A DNA stretch of 12,356 nucleotides from an uncultured archaeon (GCA_964458565.1 CAYWJO010000069.1:1-12356); one strand, 5' to 3'; positions 4,182 through 12,356 are shown, counted from the first letter of the stretch. Notes: generated from the sequence alone by a model not told the origin. Numbers and translations: made by a program.

Positions 4182-4288
4182 TGGTGGACCGGGCGAGATT
4201 TGAACTCGCGACCTTCTGAAGATTCGAGACATTGGGAAATCCCACGTCATTGCGAATCAGACGATCTACCAGTCTGATCTACCGGCCC
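4182..4288 (-). tRNA. tRNA-Ala(CGC) with 30-nt intron at canonical position 37/38 and genome-encoded CCA
   Basis: Minus strand reads GGGCCGG-TA-GATC-AGACTGGTA-GATC-G-TCTGA-TTCGCA[intron]T-TCAGA-AGGTC-GCGAG-TTCAAAT-CTCGC-CCGGTCC-A-CCA. G3:U70 and A73 are Ala identity elements. Mature length is 77 nt. Confidence 0.96.
4221..4250 (-). other. tRNA intron (BHB type), 30 nt
   Basis: Central 4-bp helix TTCG/CGAA, 3-nt bulges CA^A and TC^T, intron stem GAC..GGGA/TCCC..GTC. Confidence 0.92.
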
Positions 4289-4358: not shown

Positions 4359-6965
4359 TCACTTCCCTTCTCTCTTCACCATTTCCTCTAATTTTGCCAT
4401 TCGATCTTTGAGATCCCGATTCTCTTTCTCCAGTTTTTCTACGCTCTTCTTTATCGAGTCAATCTCCTTTGGTTCTCGTTTTTTGCTCAGTGCTCTAATT
4501 GCTTCTCTTGAGTAACGTACAATTCGACCCTCGACTTCAGACTCAGCCAGCTTTGATAGTGCTGGTATCAGTGAAGGGTCTTCGTAGGCTTTCGCAGCAA
4601 GAAGCGCCGTCACCTGTACTCTGAATGAATTGTCGTTGAGGAGTTTCTCAAGATCCGACTTGATGTCAGGTCGATTTTTCTTGTATCTCTTGCCAAGTTC
4701 TGCAAGAAGTGTGGGTACCATCCTTCGAAGCTCATCTGATGTTCCAATAGTCAAGTAACTCATCAAAATATCAATAGCTTCCTCCTTTTCAGTTGCCGCA
4801 ATACCCTGTAGGTATCCCTGTTCAACAATGTGTTGCCAACTTGGTTGTACAGACTTGATGCCATCTTTCAAGACGTCAAGTGAACCATTATGCTGAATCT
4901 TCCCCATTGATGCTGCAGCAGAAGACACCACAAAATAGCTCTCTGTGTTCTTCAAGAGGGCTTTCAGCGCCTCATATGTACGGTCATTCTTATAGAACTC
5001 CCCAAGGGCACGTGCAACTGCTGTTAGTGCTTTGGTATTTTTCAAATCAATACCCTTCAAAAGCTCATCAAGAGCGGACTCATTCTTTACGGATCCTAGT
5101 GCCTTTGCTATCTCAGTCTGTACACCCCAAAAGCTCTCCTCTTTGAGTGCAAGCCCCAATGAAGCGAGTGCCTTAGGTGTGGCTTTCTTAGCGAGTGCTT
5201 GAGCTGCCTTGATACGCATGATTACATTACTACCATTGGTCAGCTGTTCAATCCACATCGGTTCGGGTTTGTCGATACTCCAGTCCATGAGGATGGTATA
5301 GTCTGGATCAATCATGACCATCTTCGGACAATCCTTCACTGGGAAGTAGAAGCTGTGATTACGTTCAGAGATTTGCATCTTGAAGGTACTTGTGGATTCA
5401 TCATTATGTACCAGACTGATCTTCAGTGGAAAACGAAACACTTCTGGAGTCATTCCATCGTCATACTTCTGTGTCTGCTCAATCTTGACCAATACCTGAC
5501 CAAGCTTTTCATCATGACTGACCTTGATTTTACTTTCTGGATAGCCAGCTTTGTACAGCCACTGTTCAAAGAACCAACCATAGTCCTCACCTGTCATCTC
5601 CGTAAAGATGCTCTCAAGGTCATGGGTATAAACTGATTTGAACGTGTGACGTTTGAGATACTCTGCAATGATTTTCCAGTATTTCTCCTCTCCCACAAGT
5701 TGCATCAGCATATAGTAACGCCAGGCACCACCTGGATAGAGTGTGCGATCGAATACATCCCCTCCACGCTCCCACTCATTCTGCACAACAGGGCGTCTAT
5801 ACTTGTTTTTGTCCTCGTCGAAGTATGACATTTGCTTCTGATATTGCTCGTAGAGATATTCATCGTAGCCCTTGTCGTGACGTTTCCACTCATTCTGGAA
5901 TTGAGTTGCAGCACCCTCATTCAGCCACCCATGAGACCATGTCCTGCATGTAACGAGGTCCCCAAACCACTGATGCACAAGCTCGTGACTCACAAGACCA
6001 TCTGAGTCAAAGTCCAAGTGTGCCTTTTCATCATGAAATGTTGCATCAGTTTGGGTTGTAGCACTGACATTCTCCATTCCACCAAAGATGAAATTGGCTG
6101 CAGTTACTTGAGCATACTTCACCCAGGGATACTTAACTCCAAACCTGGACTCATAGAATTTGATCATCTCGGGAGTCTTTCCATATGAACGATATATCGT
6201 GTCTTTGTCCCATTTCTTGTGCGCATAAAAACTGACCTCAAGTCCATCCAGGTCCTCCTTGTATTCCACAGCCTCACTGACCCATACTGTCATCAAATAT
6301 GCAGGGATTGGCAGTTCCTGTACCCAGTGAAAAGTTTCCGTACCATCATCATTTTTCTCTCTCTCTCTCAGTTCGCCATTACTCATAGCAAAGAATCCTT
6401 GAGGAACTGTGATGATGGCATCCAAAGGGAACTTATGACTTGGATTATCATAAACTGGAACAATATATCTTGCGTAATCATCTTGCAGCTGTGTCCATGC
6501 ACTGCTTTCTACGTCAGGAAATTCGGGTGATGGATTTGTGAAAAACAGACCGCCACGTGGCTTATTGATTTGGTAGGTAAACGTAAGTTCCACAATATCC
6601 TCTTCTTTTAATGGGGTAATTAGATAGATAGTCATGGACTCATCATCGGGTTGCATGTCAAAGGTAACCTCCTCATCACCCGCCTTGACCGACGATATGG
6701 TCAGTTCAGCAGCATGGAGATAGATTGTGGAAACCTCAGATACAATCGACTTAATCCTTAACTTTGAGATTGCATCGACACGCTCTCCTTTGAGATCCAT
6801 TTTCCACTCAAATGTAAGATGTTCTATAGAATACTCCCGTGGCGGTGCCCATTGGGGCTTAGCAGTAGGAAACGTAAACTGCTCCCTATCAGTCAATAGA
6901 ATACTCTCAGCTTCATGAGTATCTCCTCGTATTAATGCTTCTAGATAATCGTGAAAATCAGTCAT
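4359..6965 (-). CDS. M1-family zinc aminopeptidase (PepN-like) with C-terminal HEAT repeats and coiled-coil tail
   Basis: GGMEN exopeptidase motif and HELVHQWFG...WLNEG (HEXXH-X18-E). C-terminal xRxxAAxAL-type HEAT repeats and a charged heptad tail (LEKENRDLKDRMAKLEE). Confidence 0.93.
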   Translation of the reverse strand: MTDFHDYLEALIRGDTHEAESILLTDREQFTFPTAKPQWAPPREYSIEHLTFEWKMDLKGERVDAISKLRIKSIVSEVSTIYLHAAELTISSVKAGDEEVTFDMQPDDESMTIYLITPLKEEDIVELTFTYQINKPRGGLFFTNPSPEFPDVESSAWTQLQDDYARYIVPVYDNPSHKFPLDAIITVPQGFFAMSNGELREREKNDDGTETFHWVQELPIPAYLMTVWVSEAVEYKEDLDGLEVSFYAHKKWDKDTIYRSYGKTPEMIKFYESRFGVKYPWVKYAQVTAANFIFGGMENVSATTQTDATFHDEKAHLDFDSDGLVSHELVHQWFGDLVTCRTWSHGWLNEGAATQFQNEWKRHDKGYDEYLYEQYQKQMSYFDEDKNKYRRPVVQNEWERGGDVFDRTLYPGGAWRYYMLMQLVGEEKYWKIIAEYLKRHTFKSVYTHDLESIFTEMTGEDYGWFFEQWLYKAGYPESKIKVSHDEKLGQVLVKIEQTQKYDDGMTPEVFRFPLKISLVHNDESTSTFKMQISERNHSFYFPVKDCPKMVMIDPDYTILMDWSIDKPEPMWIEQLTNGSNVIMRIKAAQALAKKATPKALASLGLALKEESFWGVQTEIAKALGSVKNESALDELLKGIDLKNTKALTAVARALGEFYKNDRTYEALKALLKNTESYFVVSSAAASMGKIQHNGSLDVLKDGIKSVQPSWQHIVEQGYLQGIAATEKEEAIDILMSYLTIGTSDELRRMVPTLLAELGKRYKKNRPDIKSDLEKLLNDNSFRVQVTALLAAKAYEDPSLIPALSKLAESEVEGRIVRYSREAIRALSKKREPKEIDSIKKSVEKLEKENRDLKDRMAKLEEMVKREGK

Positions 6966-7077
6966 GGTCAGACCCCCATCACCTGTTGTATTACCGGTGA
7001 GGTATAAGTGTGAATGATTGTTAGACCCCGGTTAGTGATTAAGAATGTTCGTAAATAGACCTGCCAGAGACTACTAC

Positions 7078-7371
7078 CTAAATTTCTATTCCAAACGCTT
7101 CTGAAAATCTCTCAATTCTGACAAATTCAACTAGAAAATCACGTCCCTTTTCAGTTAGAGAGTAGATTCTAGCTTCCCCACCTTGATCTTTTTCAATTAC
7201 GAGTTCCTTTTCTACCAATTCCTCAAGATATTGAGTTAGTCGATCATGTGAAAGATTGGCTGCATAGAGCACCTTTGTTGGACCCGCACCTTCTTCGCCC
7301 TCTCCTTGAATAGCGCGCATCATATCCACTAGGATGCGCATCTTGGAGCGGTAAGGACGTTTCCGGTTCAT
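7078..7371 (-). CDS. Small archaeal winged helix-turn-helix transcription regulator
   Basis: RSKMRIL..., PTKVLYAANLS....YLEEL...LV and YSLTEKG pattern typical of archaeal wHTH regulators; 97 aa. Confidence 0.88.
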   Translation of the reverse strand: MNRKRPYRSKMRILVDMMRAIQGEGEEGAGPTKVLYAANLSHDRLTQYLEELVEKELVIEKDQGGEARIYSLTEKGRDFLVEFVRIERFSEAFGIEI

Positions 7372-7373
7372 GA

Positions 7374-7994
7374 CTATCTTCCAGCCTTTATCAGCATGAC
7401 AAGTAATGCGATTAAGCCTAGGAATTGAGACAACTGACTTAGTATATACCCTCTATATTCATTGAATGAAAATATCAGGAAAATATGACTCAATAATAGG
7501 AACAGGAAACCAATCACAACATAGAGTGCGAAACGACTTCTATTTGATGCATAGTTAATTAGTGCTTGCAAAACCACAACAAGGAGCACAATAATGGCAA
7601 TCATTTCGAGATTGGGGTCAATCAATCCCGGAAGAGCTAATAGCATCAGGGGTGCATTATTTTCGTATTCCCTTACTCCTCTTCTCGTTGAGAGAGCAAA
7701 TAGTGCATAAGCCATTATTCTGAGTGCTTCATATGCGATAATGACTATGTTTCGCAAACTCAATGCTTCTCCTGATCCACTAGCATCTGCAAGTACGAAG
7801 AAGTATATGGTTCCTATAACCCGTCCAAACATGCTAACAGAAAGCACTAGGAATCCCGTGGAGAGGTCCGAAAGCCGCTTTTCCCTAGTCAGCTTGTATG
7901 CAGTATTTGCATAGTGCGAAATGGCAAATGCGATAATCGCTCCGATTGTTTCAAGGATAAGGTCTATCCTTATGAGCATGATTTCTGTCTGCAT
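7374..7994 (-). CDS. Polytopic membrane protein (6-7 TM) with internal 3-TM duplication
   Basis: Six clear hydrophobic helices plus a short central one. The halves align (LETIGAII...Y..TR.KR....STGFLVLSVS vs LEMIAIIV...Y.SNRSR....VIGFLFLLLS). It ends 2 nt before the wHTH start. Confidence 0.8.
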   Translation of the reverse strand: MQTEIMLIRIDLILETIGAIIAFAISHYANTAYKLTREKRLSDLSTGFLVLSVSMFGRVIGTIYFFVLADASGSGEALSLRNIVIIAYEALRIMAYALFALSTRRGVREYENNAPLMLLALPGLIDPNLEMIAIIVLLVVVLQALINYASNRSRFALYVVIGFLFLLLSHIFLIFSFNEYRGYILSQLSQFLGLIALLVMLIKAGR

Positions 7995-8040
7995 GGTTGG
8001 CGCCTATCCTAGACTTGAATTTCACACACTTATTGTCAAT

Positions 8041-8121
8041 GGATGAATCATCCTTTATCAAAATTCGTAGTATTCTGTTGTATATTTCCGCGGAGAATTC
8101 TACTAGACGAATCATCTAGTA
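8041..8121. promoter_or_regulatory. Two palindromic operator-like sites, core GA(T/C)GAATCATC
   Basis: GGATGA-A-TCATCC (8041-8053, perfect) and TACTAGACGA-A-TCATCTAGTA (8101-8121, one mismatched pair) in a divergent intergenic region. Confidence 0.65.
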
Positions 8122-8138
8122 CAATCCTTCATTCTGCC

Positions 8139-8147
8139 TTTATATAA
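8139..8147 (+). promoter_or_regulatory. TATA box for the 8175 gene (likely near-leaderless transcript)
   Basis: TTTATATAA 28-36 nt upstream of the ATG. Confidence 0.7.
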
Positions 8148-8174
8148 GATTGACAATACTAATATTGAGTCAAA

Positions 8175-8720
8175 ATGCAGCACGCTAGAAAAATAACTCT
8201 CATTGCGATTGCTACGGTACTAATTGGATTGGTCACAGTACCTGCCTTTATGACCCCCGTAGATGCAGCGTCAATTTTGGAATCTGAGGTTAGAGCTCAG
8301 GTTGCTATTGGAGACTCCTTCTACATTGACGCACGTGGTGAGATATTCATTCTGAATGAAGATATGGAATCACGAGCCCTCACGAAGATGCATTTCGAAT
8401 TCACGATTGTACGAAATGGATCGAGAGGTGTGATGTTTGAAGTAAATTCAGGATATATGGTAGTAAATAACACCAGATATACCGTGGTAGATGGTATTGG
8501 ATTTGCAGGTCGACCCTCTCAAGGCCGATTCAATAGCACTATAGTCTTCGGGTTTAGGATGAATCTGACAGATGGTCTTGGAACTGAGATACAACTCAGT
8601 TTTCTTGGTGCTGTCTATCGCAATGCGAATGAACGTCCAGTCCTAATCATGCGTGGTAATCTGATACTTAATGGATTGGAGTACAACTTGCTTCAGCGTG
8701 GACTCATTCGACGAATGTAA
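8175..8720 (+). CDS. Secreted/exported hypothetical protein, beta-rich
   Basis: Basic N-terminus, hydrophobic core and VDA/A cleavage-like site; consensus TATA upstream. No family recognised. Confidence 0.75.
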   Translation: MQHARKITLIAIATVLIGLVTVPAFMTPVDAASILESEVRAQVAIGDSFYIDARGEIFILNEDMESRALTKMHFEFTIVRNGSRGVMFEVNSGYMVVNNTRYTVVDGIGFAGRPSQGRFNSTIVFGFRMNLTDGLGTEIQLSFLGAVYRNANERPVLIMRGNLILNGLEYNLLQRGLIRRM

Positions 8721-8724
8721 TTCA

Positions 8725-8815
8725 TGGTGGAAGAAACCAACTGCTGCGGGCGGATGTTAGACCACTGTCAATAATCTGCCAATGAATGGCGGGTAACACT
8801 CCCGCCCTTCCATCA
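8725..8815 (+). ncRNA. Candidate structured RNA (three-way junction), unknown family
   Basis: P1 8725-8733/8807-8815, P2 8749-8780, P3 8788-8793/8801-8806. G-U pairs favour the + strand. Followed by CCTCTTTT. Confidence 0.45.
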
Positions 8816-8881
8816 CCTCTTTTATTCGCACTACGAAACGTAATATGCGAGAAGTGTTCAATTTGGAATGAGTTGATAAAT

Positions 8882-9403
8882 TTGGCAGAAAGATGTACAT
8901 CTTGTGGAAAGAAGATCCCGCCAAAGATGGTTCCACGAATGAAAAAAGTCTCAGGAAGTCATCAGCCATTATGCAGAAGGTGTGTTCTAGATAAGGCCGA
9001 ATCTGGCGAATTGAGACGTCTTCATTGTAGGGACTGCAATAAAGATATTGAACCCAATATTGTACAAAGGATTTTACGTGCTAGGAAGAGAGGTCGTATC
9101 GTTCCTTTGATTTGCAAAGATTGTTTTGTCAAGCGTCGTGGAGGACGAGAAGCACCACTCAGGACTCCAGTTGTCAGTGGTGATACGCGAGTGGAAGTGA
9201 GATATGTAGAGCGTGAGGTTACTGCACAACCTGAACAATTGACGTCAAGAGCTCCAGAAATAATTGATCTTGATGTAGAGGAATGGGAGTGTATGACTTG
9301 TGCTGCGCCACTGGAACCAGATGAGGTCAATGAAATCCGAAAGAATAACGTTGTCCGATGCGAATATTGTGGATGCAGTATTAGTGCTGATCAATATCGA
9401 TAA
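8882..9403 (+). CDS. Basic protein with three C4 zinc fingers
   Basis: Paired CTSC/CRRC, CRDC/CKDC and CMTC/CEYC. TTG 8882 is preferred as start (GAGTTGAT upstream; avoids an unpaired seventh CxxC and overlap with the RNA structure). Confidence 0.75.
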   Translation: MAERCTSCGKKIPPKMVPRMKKVSGSHQPLCRRCVLDKAESGELRRLHCRDCNKDIEPNIVQRILRARKRGRIVPLICKDCFVKRRGGREAPLRTPVVSGDTRVEVRYVEREVTAQPEQLTSRAPEIIDLDVEEWECMTCAAPLEPDEVNEIRKNNVVRCEYCGCSISADQYR

Positions 9404-9419
9404 GAACGACAAATCAACT

Positions 9420-9454
9420 GCGTTGGGAGGAAGGGTAAAAGTTTCTCCCAATGC
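9420..9454 (+). terminator. Stable hairpin just 3' of the zinc-finger gene
   Basis: GCGTTGGGAGGAA/TTTCTCCCAATGC 13-bp stem (two G-U), 9-nt loop, then CTCTTT. Confidence 0.45.
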
Positions 9455-9659
9455 TGGCTCTTTAGGTTCTCATAAATACTGATTGATACTCATATCCATT
9501 TTGAACGAAGCTCTCCATGAAAATGGTAGAATTGCTCTCATTATGTAACTACTAGAGCAAAACCCTATATTCTTTCAAAACAAGAGAATCCTCAGATGAG
9601 GTATTTTCTTTGAGAAATACCTTGAACAAAATTAGAGGGAAGATAAAATACCGATTGAA

Positions 9660-10028
9660 ATGAGAGCTAGTAACTACAGTGTGGAATCGCTCATTGATTT
9701 TCTATCAATGGAATTTTCGAACAAACTACAACAAGTCGCTAGATTTTCAGACGGTCTAATGGCAGTGTTTGTGCGTGATAAGTTGATGCTGCGAAATATG
9801 CAGACACTCACTGTAACAGTCACTGTAGAATGGAAGGAGCTATATAATGCGGCTATAATAAGGATTGTAGCAAGTGGTGGCAGAGAGGGTATCTTTCGAC
9901 TTGATATGTGGGGCGCTGAAAATGGTGCTGAGAAGTGGGCTCAACGTGAGATACAAAAGGCGCTGGTGCACATTGATAGCAATGGCAGAACAACTCACTC
10001 AAGCCCAAGCAGACGTCCTGTCGAGTAG
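9660..10028 (+). CDS. Hypothetical protein, DUF6054-like
   Basis: TLTVTV...IRIVASGGREGIFRLDMWGAE resembles the SGG..G.F...WG.E motif recalled for DUF6054; not verified by search. Confidence 0.55.
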   Translation: MRASNYSVESLIDFLSMEFSNKLQQVARFSDGLMAVFVRDKLMLRNMQTLTVTVTVEWKELYNAAIIRIVASGGREGIFRLDMWGAENGAEKWAQREIQKALVHIDSNGRTTHSSPSRRPVE

Positions 10029-10063
10029 AAATTAATGGGTTCATAAATAGGAGATTTTCATGC

Positions 10064-10606
10064 ATGGGAATTATAGAGGCTATCAGTCGTCAAAAGCGGG
10101 CGTTTGGCTTGATTCTGATCCTTTTCATTATAGGATTATTTATCGTCCCACGTTTAGTTATGGTGTTTCAGGATATGTCAAAGCGAACAATTCTCTATCA
10201 GACACCTAGCGATGGTGAGGATATTGAAATTGGTGAGTGGATGCATGGAGCTATAATAATAGAACCACCACCTGAAGGGTTGATGAACTTTATTGCCATT
10301 TCAGTAGATGTCATTGTATGGAATGATTGCACCTATACGTTGGATATGAACTACGGGATTGTAACAATCACTCCTTCTCAATATCTCGAACTTAACTCGA
10401 CAGAGAAAGATATCATGTTCGGGAATGGATTTCGTTATATCAGTCAGAACAAATCATATACGGGAGAGTCTCAAACAAGCATTTCATCTACGGGTACTCA
10501 TGTATGGGCATTGAAATTTGTAGGTACATATGTAGATGTGCCAGCTATGACCATCAGGGTCTTTTTCACAATTTCAATTATACATGATACAGCTCCAATT
10601 TATTGA
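10064..10606 (+). CDS. Hypothetical protein with N-terminal membrane anchor
   Basis: RQKR followed by a ~22-aa hydrophobic helix and a beta-rich soluble part; AGGAGA RBS-like sequence upstream. Confidence 0.7.
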   Translation: MGIIEAISRQKRAFGLILILFIIGLFIVPRLVMVFQDMSKRTILYQTPSDGEDIEIGEWMHGAIIIEPPPEGLMNFIAISVDVIVWNDCTYTLDMNYGIVTITPSQYLELNSTEKDIMFGNGFRYISQNKSYTGESQTSISSTGTHVWALKFVGTYVDVPAMTIRVFFTISIIHDTAPIY

Positions 10607-10621
10607 AGCAAATGTATTTCT

Positions 10622-10654
10622 AGAGGTAGTTGGGGAACTGCCCACCAACTCTCT
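10622..10654 (+). terminator. Hairpin downstream of the 10064 gene
   Basis: AGAG..AGTTGG / CCAACT-CTCT stem. Confidence 0.35.
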
Positions 10655-10662
10655 TGGAAGGG

Positions 10663-10803
10663 CTTACACAACTACAGTTAGATATCCAGATCGGATGAAC
10701 ATATCTGCACATCCCATTCTTACTTTAAATGCTCATTTGTTCTTCTTGCAGCCCCTTGTGCTTTAGATGTGCGACCTTCCAAGGTGCATCACAGGAACTC
10801 TAG
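10663..10803 (+). repeat. Upstream copy (copy 1) of the rRNA promoter/5' leader/16S 5' end
   Basis: Colinear blocks shared with 11372-11791: CTTA..CAAC, CGGATGA, CA(T/C)ATCTG(C/T)ACA, a 28-mer with 27/28 identity, TGTGCTT..AGATGTG, ACCTT..AAGGT, and an identical TCACAGGAACTCTAG. Confidence 0.88.
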
Positions 10804-10813
10804 TTGAGCGTAA

Positions 10814-11230
10814 TCAAAAAGTATCATGATAGTGTTCACTATCTAAATAATCAACATAATACTCAAGCTTTTCAATCAATGATGGTTTAGGTTTGACAAG
10901 TTCTCCCTTACTCTCACTCAGCTTCTTTTCATAAATTCCAGAAAGCCTGTATAGATCCCTATCCTCCTTACGAGTTTCTTCAAGGACAAATTCAGCATAC
11001 AACGCATACCCGAGAGCTTCGATCAGCTTCTGATGATACGGTTTGCAGCCAGGATGTCTCGCATAGAGAAAGAATCCGCCCTCATATTCCTTAATCTCAG
11101 TAACCATAAGACGACTCTTATACAACTTCTCTGCTTTCCGCTTAGCCAAATACTCATTTTCAAATATGCCCCTCAGCGAGAGAAGCTTTCCGTCCTTCTC
11201 AATAGATGGGGTGATTTCATCAATTAACAT
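10814..11230 (-). CDS. Hypothetical protein (138 aa, K/E/Y-rich) between the two rRNA leader copies
   Basis: Natural-looking composition and a TTTTTAAAAA TATA-like element ~35-45 nt upstream. No family recognised. Confidence 0.6.
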   Translation of the reverse strand: MLIDEITPSIEKDGKLLSLRGIFENEYLAKRKAEKLYKSRLMVTEIKEYEGGFFLYARHPGCKPYHQKLIEALGYALYAEFVLEETRKEDRDLYRLSGIYEKKLSESKGELVKPKPSLIEKLEYYVDYLDSEHYHDTF

Positions 11231-11371
11231 ATCATATCATCTTCCGTGCTTTCTTCTTAATTCCTTTTTAAAAAAAGAGTAGGAGTCTGTATGTGGTCTG
11301 GAGTAGATGTTTGTGTAATGAGTTTCGTATAATTGAGGTGCATGTAAAATGAAACGGAATCCTTACCATAC

Positions 11372-11784
11372 CTTAAACCAACACAATTTAGGCGTATTCC
11401 CACTTCCCGGATGACAACGTTCACATCTGTACACAACACCTTCTCTCAAAAGCTCATTTGTTCTTCTAGCAGCCCCTTGGAAAGCTTTTTATGAGAATGA
11501 CGGCAGAATCTCTTCTGTTCGCACATACTCGGTAACCAGAGAAGATGCCGTCGGCGAATGCCTAGCGATGATGCTCTGGACTTCCAAGTGCGACTATAAG
11601 ATGCGGACTTGAGATAGACCAGTGCCACTGTACTGGAATCCCCTCTTGTCTAAGATACGCTCAACAGGTGTGCAGATATTAAGGGTAAGTAGAAAACCCT
11701 GCCAATCTGTTATCCTTCATACTTCCATTATAGATAATCAGTGTGCTTACAGATGTGATACCTTGCCAAGGTCACGTCACAGGA
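11372..11784 (+). promoter_or_regulatory. rRNA promoter region and 5' external transcribed leader (copy 2)
   Basis: Directly precedes the 16S gene. Long-range helix 11421-11435/11742-11758 encloses the conserved 28-mer 11452-11479 (probable 5' strand of the 16S processing stem) and several hairpins. Confidence 0.75.
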
Positions 11785-12356
11785 ACTCTAGACGTGCGCC
11801 CATATTGAGCGCATGGGAGTGTTGATCCTGCTAGAGGACACTGCTATCGGCGTTGGGGTAAGACATGCGAGTCTAAAGGGTCCGCATCCGGGCTCTTGGC
11901 GAAAGGCTCAGTAACACGTCGTTAACCTCCCGTATGGACTTGGACACCGCCGGGAAACTGGCGTTAATCCAAGATAGATGCGTTGTTCTGGAAATGATTT
12001 CGCGTTGAAATGGGTGTTCTAGGTATGCTGAACATTCCGCCATACGATGGGACGGCGTCGGATCATAGCTGTTGGGGGGGTAAATTCCTCTCAAACTTAT
12101 GACCCGTACCGGCTATGTAAGTAGTTGCCGGGAGAAGAGCACTGAGACACGGGCTCTAGCCCCACGGGGCGCAGCAGTTACGAAACCTCACCAATGCGCT
12201 AACGCGTGAGTGGGCAACGCCGAGTGACAGGGGATAACTCTGTCTGTGGCGATAAGGTAGTATCTTTCGCTAGAAAGGAGAGGGCAAGGCTGGTGCCAGC
12301 CGCCGCGGTAAAACCAGCTCTTCGAGTGGTGTCCATGATTATTGAGCTTAAAGCGT
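11785..12356 (+). rRNA. rrs: 16S rRNA gene, archaeal (Asgard-like), 5' part, runs off the window; interrupted at 11792-11821
   Basis: TTGATCCTG, CATGCGAGTC, GGCTCAGTAACACGT, GGGAAACTG, ACTGAGACACGG, ACGGGGCGCAGCAG, GTGCCAGCCGCCGCGGTAA and TTATTGAGCTTAAAGCG occur in the correct order and spacing. The 5' end is approximate. Confidence 0.98.
11792..11821 (+). other. 30-nt BHB-type intron in 16S rRNA helix 1
   Basis: Central helix CTCT/GGAG, bulges AG^A and TG^T, intron stem CGTGCGC/GCGCATG, exon stem CAGGA/TCCTG. Removal gives ACTCTAG|TTGATCCTGCTAGAG. Confidence 0.87.

Follow-up and report, generated by a model that had tools for sequence, protein, structure and literature searches.

Why should the 16S rRNA gene of an archaeon be preceded by a second, partial copy of its own 5' region, and does that copy serve any purpose? 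The question is raised by contig C69 (GCA_964458565.1, CAYWJO010000069.1:1-12356), one of 93 contigs in a 3.7-Mb metagenome-assembled genome (MAG); the whole of this contig, 12,356 nucleotides (nt), is referred to here as the window. Near its 3' end, two colinear copies of a short sequence lie upstream of a single 16S body, and a sequence-only reading had taken them for a tandemly duplicated promoter, leader, and first exon, arising either through an integration that supplied a replacement promoter and leader or as two functional alternative leaders. The partial duplication is real and ends exactly at a bulge-helix-bulge (BHB) intron in helix 1 of the 16S rRNA. The downstream copy (copy 2) is part of the functional, vertically inherited transcription unit. 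The upstream copy (copy 1) is probably a nonfunctional relic of a rearrangement or integration specific to this lineage, and we infer both its lack of function and its origin from sequence comparisons.

The two copies correspond in two well-kept blocks. A 28-mer at 10731-10758 recurs at 11452-11479 with 27 of 28 positions identical, a match that extends to 30/32 over 10727-10758 versus 11448-11479, and a 15-mer at 10789-10803 recurs without change (15/15) at 11777-11791; the final 7 nt of the copy 1 15-mer are identical to 16S nucleotides 1 to 7. The 28-mer (E = 1.5e-5 for the whole genome) and the other repeats are unique within the 3.7-Mb genome, and a metagenome scan for the 28-mer returned 0 matches from a set that may leave out near-identical records. 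A small ACCTT/AAGGT hairpin is kept in both copies (10774-10785 and 11760-11772), as are the arms of an enclosing helix: CATATCTGCACA (10700-10711) with TGTGCTTTAGATGTG (10757-10771) in copy 1, and TCACATCTGTACACA (11421-11435) with TGTGCTTACAGATGTGA (11742-11758) in copy 2. The sequence-only reading held that this helix was conserved in structure but not in sequence. The arms do exist, but the contrast was overstated: they are homologous sequences, which differ between the copies by one substitution and one indel, partly compensated. Nor can two sequences separate selection on both copies, which had been suggested by diverged spacers alongside kept pairing elements, from chance or gene conversion. 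Clear homology stops, as had been proposed, at CTCTAG, the intron insertion point; the sequence 3' of it aligns no better than shuffles, with one borderline TTGAGCG match (108/2000 shuffles), and homology 5' of the 32-mer is marginal (148/2000 shuffles).

Copy 1, some 700 bp 5' of the real promoter and leader, spans approximately positions 10692 to 10812 and is made up of two patches, A1 and B1 (Table 1), the second of which aligns to 11742-11791 with a few indels. The patches are joined directly at TTG|TG, with TG as the microhomology, and 263 nt (11480-11742) are therefore missing. These 263 nt hold the promoter and the whole of the conserved leader, including one strand of the processing stem. 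Copy 1 thus lacks the family-conserved GAAAGC-TTTTTAT block, which is found only at 11480-11493, and its CCCCTTG runs straight into the 3' end of the leader; it also lacks the stem strand, which maps to 11656-11725. A weak TTTAAAT at 10722-10728 is not common to copy 2. Copy 1 is situated between the stop codons of two convergent open reading frames (ORFs), ORF180 on the plus strand (ending at 10606) and ORF138 on the minus strand (ending at 10814), and the near-identical blocks (30/32 and 15/15) bound positions 10813 to 11408.

The functional unit was recognized by comparison with relatives. In a DNA search of 40 relatives, 19 of the 24 same-family genomes keep only window positions 11471-11689, at 68 to 90% identity (mostly 70 to 80%). 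The conserved block is located 130 to 250 nt 5' of the 16S start in relatives (9 of the 11 loci fetched, those with an Rfam 16S match). In an alignment of 10 loci from approximately nine genera, a TTGGAAAGSTTTTTAT block is nearly invariant, as is TTGGAAAG(C/G)TTTTTAT, which corresponds to window positions 11477-11492 and has the textbook form of a transcription factor B recognition element (BRE) with its TATA box; approximately 25 to 30 unconserved nt follow and then a conserved leader of approximately 200 nt. From the archaeal BRE/TATA consensus and spacing, we infer a promoter at 11474-11493 and a transcription start site near 11515. Since the 28-mer lies 5' of this promoter, it is not expected to be a stem strand with a complement 3' of the 16S gene. 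In two loci of relatives that contain a complete 16S gene and trailer (L016 and L018), the leader blocks GCTCA(A/G)CAGTG, GGGGTAAGC, CCCGTCA, and CCTGTACTT pair with the trailer, and the 5' strand of the processing stem is thereby placed at window positions 11656-11725; a canonical BHB in the stems of these two relatives could not be placed from minimum-free-energy cofolds. In both loci there is no 23S gene within 2 kb downstream of the 16S gene, and the rRNA genes are therefore unlinked.

The real 3' trailer of the window's 16S gene cannot be read, because the MAG holds no other rRNA piece: motif scans found no further piece and no true trailer, and Rfam searches of the genome itself for small- and large-subunit rRNA gave no match. 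An Rfam search at E <= 1 over 10550-11850 was likewise without a match, and the archaeal 16S model begins at 11818 in the Rfam search.

All of the leaders examined in relatives (12, from nine genera) are single, and none of them has an upstream arm complementary to it, a feature of the window alone. The copy 2 leader core is 77 to 83% identical to those of relatives and the adjoining 16S sequence is 80 to 83% identical, an equal divergence. Comparison of the syntenic loci, as had been proposed, gave a single leader, an intronless 16S gene, and an M1 peptidase gene as the divergent neighbor. In relatives from many genera this M1 aminopeptidase (N terminus MTDFHDY...) is divergent from the 16S promoter and approximately 200 to 950 nt away. 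Copy 1 is found in no relative, which favors regarding it, on comparative grounds, as a simple pseudo-leader.

The DNA itself is beyond reasonable dispute. Of the Logan contigs from two other salt-marsh runs, one agrees with the window throughout 10668-11828 (0 differences) and the other shows 1 difference over 10595-11978, and seven more contigs encoding the intervening ORF (three JGI metagenomes and four Logan runs) are 99.9 to 100% identical, with the arrangement unchanged; no joint skipping either copy and no alternative form was seen among these JGI and Logan contigs. The chimeric join of two strains that the sequence-only reading had allowed for thus finds no counterpart in independent contigs. 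The genome is assigned to the Asgard archaea, from salt-marsh sediment, because it contains a strong actin homolog (419 bits; G000:C1:109551-110684) and Ras-family GTPase matches at 32 loci. It is the sole member of its genus in the reference set, and a close empty site for comparison is therefore lacking.

The point at which the duplication ends is occupied in copy 2 by a 30-nt intron. In the predicted fold, a 4-bp central helix (CUCU/GGAG) lies between bulges of 3 nt each (AG|A and UG|U), with an inner helix of 7 bp and an outer helix of CAGGA/UCCUG plus one A-U pair, the latter set off by a 2-nt bulge. Cleavage of such motifs falls after the second bulge nucleotide. Relatives read CAACTCTAG|TTGATCCTGCTAGAGG at the 16S start (CAACTCTAG|TTGATCC), and the window has 30 extra nucleotides at the bar; cutting inside the bulges restores helix 1 exactly and recovers the CTCTAG|TTGATCC junction of the relatives. 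An hBHBh' motif has been defined as a 4-bp helix between two 3-nt bulges, with outer helices of at least 2 bp (PMC7714728), and the modeled structure at 11792-11821 is a near-canonical example that fits this definition.

A contig from RNA run X7 (depth, 343) reads CAACTCTAG|TTGATCC without the intron; its first letter is C, as in the relatives and not as in the window (G), and the contig end may borrow k-mers of relatives, since the first ~45 nt of the 16S gene are common across the family. The helix-1 insert pattern matched no other genome among the 85 of the family, save for a 28-nt tandem duplication in G053, and a metagenome scan for helix-1 inserts, in a set that may leave out near-identical records, returned the G053/SMTZ1 contig only. 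The G053 sequence, from another genus of the family (L028, G053:C47, 682-760, minus strand; the same as L040), is a perfect tandem duplication of a 28-nt unit comprising the 16S 5' end and helix 1 (AACTCTAG...GGGCAC, twice) and is either real or an assembly artifact. An origin of the window's intron in a tandem duplication of this kind was rejected, as the sequences are dissimilar.

Table 1. Features of the 16S rRNA locus and its surroundings, by position in the window
Feature	Position	Strand	Remarks
Copy 2, patch A2	11409-11479	+	5' arm 11421-11435 and 28-mer 11452-11479; 5' of the promoter; only the final CCCTTG is conserved in relatives
16S promoter (putative)	11474-11493	+	CCCTTG-GAAAGC (BRE-like), then TTTTTAT (TATA); predicted transcription start site near 11515-11520
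16S leader core, single	11494-11741	+	Contains the processing stem's 5' strand (11656-11725); absent from copy 1
Copy 2, patch B2	11742-11791	+	3' arm, hairpin 11760-11772, and 15-mer 11777-11791; 16S exon 1 is 11785-11791
BHB mini-intron, 30 nt	11792-11821	+	In helix 1 of the 16S rRNA, after 7 nt of mature sequence
16S rRNA exon 2	11822-12356	+	Truncated by the contig end; matches Rfam RF01959 at 402.6 bits over model positions 1-518
Copy 1, patch A1	10692-10758	+	5' arm 10700-10711 and 28-mer 10731-10758; homologous to the DNA directly 5' of the real promoter; 5' part aligns weakly
Copy 1, patch B1	10757-10803	+	3' arm 10757-10771, hairpin ACCTT-CC-AAGGT 10774-10785, and 15-mer 10789-10803
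GTTGAGCGTA	10803-10812	+	Perfect complement of leader 11656-11665
ORF138, orphan, 138 aa	10814-11230	-	Between the two copies; convergent with ORF180
Lineage-specific extra DNA, ~4.4 kb	6966-11408	.	Separates the M1 aminopeptidase gene from the 16S upstream region; seven extra ORFs
Six-gene module	7078-10606	.	Winged helix-turn-helix (wHTH)/Sso10a-like regulator, then ORFs of 206, 181, 205, 122, and 180 aa; function unassigned
M1 aminopeptidase gene	4359-6965	-	Ortholog of the neighbor of the 16S promoter in relatives

The DNA that parts the 16S gene from its ancestral neighbor consists of the six-gene module, copy 1, and ORF138 (Table 1). Two contigs of another organism, L029 (1-3664) and L030, have the same gene order in the module, with an ORF180 homolog of 54% identity, and there it adjoins the gene for a giant immunoglobulin-like protein; neither carries a 16S or copy-1-like sequence. 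Further relatives of ORF180 (22 to 32% identical) are multicopy in family genomes and lie away from the 16S gene. ORF138 is absent from the 85 family genomes and is represented only by identical copies among 5.8 billion proteins; it has no Pfam, PHROG, NCBIfam, or PADLOC match and no usable ESM Atlas match, and its AlphaFold2 model has a mean pLDDT (predicted local distance difference test score) of 54. None of the seven ORFs encodes an integrase, a recombinase, or another recognizable mobile-element protein according to Pfam, PHROGs, NCBIfam, and PADLOC, in which the wHTH/Sso10a-like protein alone was matched. The left edge of the 4.4-kb insert is not marked by a third repeat, scans of viral contigs with ORF205 and ORF180 returned no relatives, and all eight contigs carrying the locus are alike, with no empty-site allele.

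The locus thus holds one functional unit, made up of the promoter (11474-11493), a leader of ~300 nt, a 7-nt exon 1, the 30-nt BHB intron, and the 16S body; in its transcript the processing stem consists of leader segment 11656-11725 paired with the 3' trailer. Copy 1 is a patchwork paralog of this region at the DNA level. The paralog comprises the 32 nt abutting the promoter and the last ~50 nt of the leader with 16S nucleotides 1 to 7, two patches joined at the TG microhomology without the 263 nt that include the promoter and the stem strand. Approximately 4.4 kb was inserted between the ancestral neighbors, the M1 aminopeptidase gene and the 16S promoter, and copy 1 is probably the scar of that event. 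The mechanism may have been the integration, whether site specific or by homology, of foreign DNA with a 16S 5' fragment on it or, equally, a local duplication or template switch followed by a deletion. The boundary of the duplication is the site of the lineage-specific intron, which by analogy suggests that fragment and intron arose in linked events. Judged by inspection of the sequence, no BHB can form where the missing 263 nt would begin and end; the loss therefore took place in DNA and not through RNA, and an RNA-level origin of the gap was rejected.

Several observations weigh against a relic. Conservation is greater within the 32-mer (30/32) and the 15-mer (15/15) than around them, a contrast that is not expected of a neutral relic but that can also result from gene conversion or chance. 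There is also a compensated indel in the arms. Neither an integrase nor an empty-site allele was found, and the reference set contains no congeneric genome, that would bear out the origin. The flanks of copy 1, moreover, are complementary to the stem strand of the leader in a manner that a pure relic does not explain, with perfect pairing over 11 and 10 nt: ATATCTGCACA (10701-10711) is the perfect complement of leader positions 11669-11679, and the 10-nt segment is that at the 3' end of copy 1 (Table 1). Together the flanks resemble the predicted trailer strand (roughly ...ATCTGCACA..CCTGTTGAGCGTA....) with 91 nt inserted. For scale, 11- to 12-mers of the stem-complement strand occur approximately 20 times genome-wide; a BLAST search of the genome for the predicted trailer strand returned the leader itself only. 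The complementarity could possibly reflect a quasi-palindrome or template-switch mutation, a deletion that removed a 16S body by way of two GTTGA motifs (one at the 16S start, the other in a former trailer), or a functional anti-leader.

Alternatives to a relic fall into those that concern the origin of the two copies and those that give copy 1 a role. An assembly artifact or a chimera of two strains might be suspected, in that the contig terminates inside the 16S gene and the source is a MAG with 5% contamination, but this is scarcely credible given that eight independent contigs, which come from seven or more samples or assemblers, share the same arrangement and that neither repeat (28 nt with a mismatch; 15 nt) is long enough to mislead assemblies at k=31 or larger. 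In one of the two versions offered by the sequence-only reading, an integration into the 16S 5' end, here by a mobile element, supplied the promoter and leader of copy 2, and copy 1 would then be the displaced original. In its favor, helix 1, where the direct repeats end, is a structured and palindromic site in an RNA gene, the intron stands at the border as in the tRNA-Thr model discussed below, and orphan DNA lies between the copies. The promoter and leader conserved in the family are nevertheless those of copy 2, which has them at the usual position for the family and with a divergence like that of the 16S gene, whereas copy 1 lacks both and is parted from the M1 peptidase gene by the six-gene module; with no integrase or recombinase in the seven ORFs and no relatives on viral contigs, a displaced original is most improbable. 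A recombination or integration origin as such is plausible and has a published tRNA analog (PMC3293823); the imported replacement promoter and leader is the part that the family architecture and the matched divergence of copy 2 fail to support. The "promoter/leader module" is not in fact duplicated, as BRE/TATA and leader with its stem strand (11494-11741) occur once only, in copy 2, and the notion of two functional alternative leaders fails because copy 1 has neither promoter block nor stem strand and lies between convergent ORFs.

A functional copy 1 would be an element in the maturation of pre-16S rRNA, acting either as a trailer-mimicking anti-leader (against 11656-11679) or as an alternative exon 1 by way of a nested 1-kb BHB intron, and would provide a second, regulated route to the 16S 5' end. 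Overall we regard such a role as unlikely. As a regulatory RNA, copy 1 would modulate formation of the processing stem or of the BHB. Transcription would make it the 3' untranslated region of ORF180 or would start from a TTTAAAT (10722-10728), and the RNA would pair through its flanks with 11656-11679 and through the segment resembling exon 1 with the intron's 3' half. We consider this unlikely. The perfect 11-nt and 10-nt complementarity is to adjacent leader segments that form a stem strand in relatives, the copy 1 arms fit the leader better than their copy 2 equivalents do, and the 32-mer and 15-mer are conserved; yet no relative has copy 1, its fold is no better than that of shuffled sequences (z = -1.2), its site between convergent genes suggests read-through transcription only, and the 11-mer is accounted for by the homology of the arms. 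Nor was expression seen in the RNA runs compared: X7 and X8 have no contigs over 10400-11785, which, as contigs only were compared, is uninformative on transcription.

Use of copy 1 as an alternative first exon, through splicing of a nested 1018-nt outer intron (10804-11821) or trans-splicing as in split tRNA genes, is very unlikely. The 15-mer gives the same outer helix (CAGGA/UCCUG) and central helix (CUCU/GGAG) as the real exon 1, and the mature product would be identical. The inner helix beside the 5' bulge is weak, however, with three G-C pairs, three G-U pairs, and one mismatch, and the cofold (-19.6 kcal/mol) is no better than shuffles (35/200). A transcript would also have to cross ORF138 in antisense as well as the promoter, and a leader derived from copy 1 alone would be without a processing stem; a 10803/11822 joint was not present in two RNA and two DNA runs, a weak point given that contigs only were compared.

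As a kind of locus, this is a gene-fragment duplication beside an intron-bearing RNA gene; what is new here is the 16S gene and the Asgard host. In Caldiarchaeum subterraneum, tRNA-Thr(GGU) is accompanied by a 5' fragment and has gained an intron, and a linkage between the two was proposed (Sugahara et al. 2012, PMC3293823). Both loci have the 5' fragment of an RNA gene as a direct repeat 5' of the intact gene (1 to 2 kb away in that system), an intact gene that gained a BHB intron, and foreign-looking DNA between. They differ in that the gene here is for 16S rRNA, the repeat omits 263 nt and takes in nontranscribed DNA from 5' of the promoter, the DNA between the copies contains no recombinase and is not repeated in the genome, and no polymorphic empty-site allele was found. 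Attachment-site duplications of pNOB8/SSV-type integrative elements in archaeal tRNA genes are similar in that a near-identical core (27/28 here) flanks inserted DNA and the repeats adjoin the end of an RNA gene that forms a symmetric stem-loop. Unlike those, the present locus has no integrase, the "element" measures only ~0.6 kb (or is 4.4 kb long and has no repeat on its left), an interruption divides the repeat, and the target is the 5' end of a gene with its promoter.

Short hairpin BHB introns are known from the 16S rRNA genes of Thermoproteales (Jay and Inskeep 2015, PMC4496867); that study lists 13 loci, and those shown all lie at or beyond Escherichia coli position 374. These introns share with the present intron a length of <50 nt, a hairpin form, and a canonical BHB, and are spliced by the tRNA splicing endonuclease; the intron here differs from those shown in its location in helix 1, 7 nt from the 5' end, in its Asgard host, and in the pseudo-copy of exon 1 upstream. 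The upstream copy at the present locus also invites comparison with repeats at other rRNA genes. Haloarchaeal rRNA operons have multiple promoters upstream, each repeat with its own promoter, and resemble this locus in their repeated blocks 5' of an rRNA gene, whereas the upstream copy here is without the promoter block.

If copy 1 is indeed a relic, it would be a rare footprint that connects, in an rRNA gene, the acquisition of a BHB intron with the duplication of a gene fragment nearby, and a model so far argued for tRNA genes only would reach rRNA and an Asgard archaeon, a group in which the origins of introns draw particular interest. A new mode of rRNA expression would follow only if copy 1 proved to be transcribed and active. 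In practical terms, the comparison defines the true promoter, leader, and processing-stem strand of the 16S genes of this family, and it cautions that insertions in helix 1 and 5' pseudo-copies can mislead 16S annotation and primer design.

Some smaller observations concern the same sequences. Position 11892 of the window is G, where all four runs compared (two DNA and two RNA) have A; the G is probably a consensus error of the MAG or a strain variant. The divergent promoter region of the six-gene module (8124-8144) has an 18/21 direct match to the stem strand (11712-11732), which was equaled in 0/200 shuffles before correction for multiple tests and is possibly due to chance. The products of that module include membrane, secreted, and zinc-ribbon proteins in addition to the wHTH regulator, and the best actin match in the genome contains one in-frame TAA. 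In two loci of relatives (L017, 939-3349; L019, 813-3105), the 16S gene spans 2.3 to 2.4 kb against a 1478-position model and therefore probably contains large introns. At 4185-4288 on the minus strand of the window, a 104-nt Rfam tRNA match (56 bits) that was missed by ARAGORN is probably an intron-containing tRNA gene.

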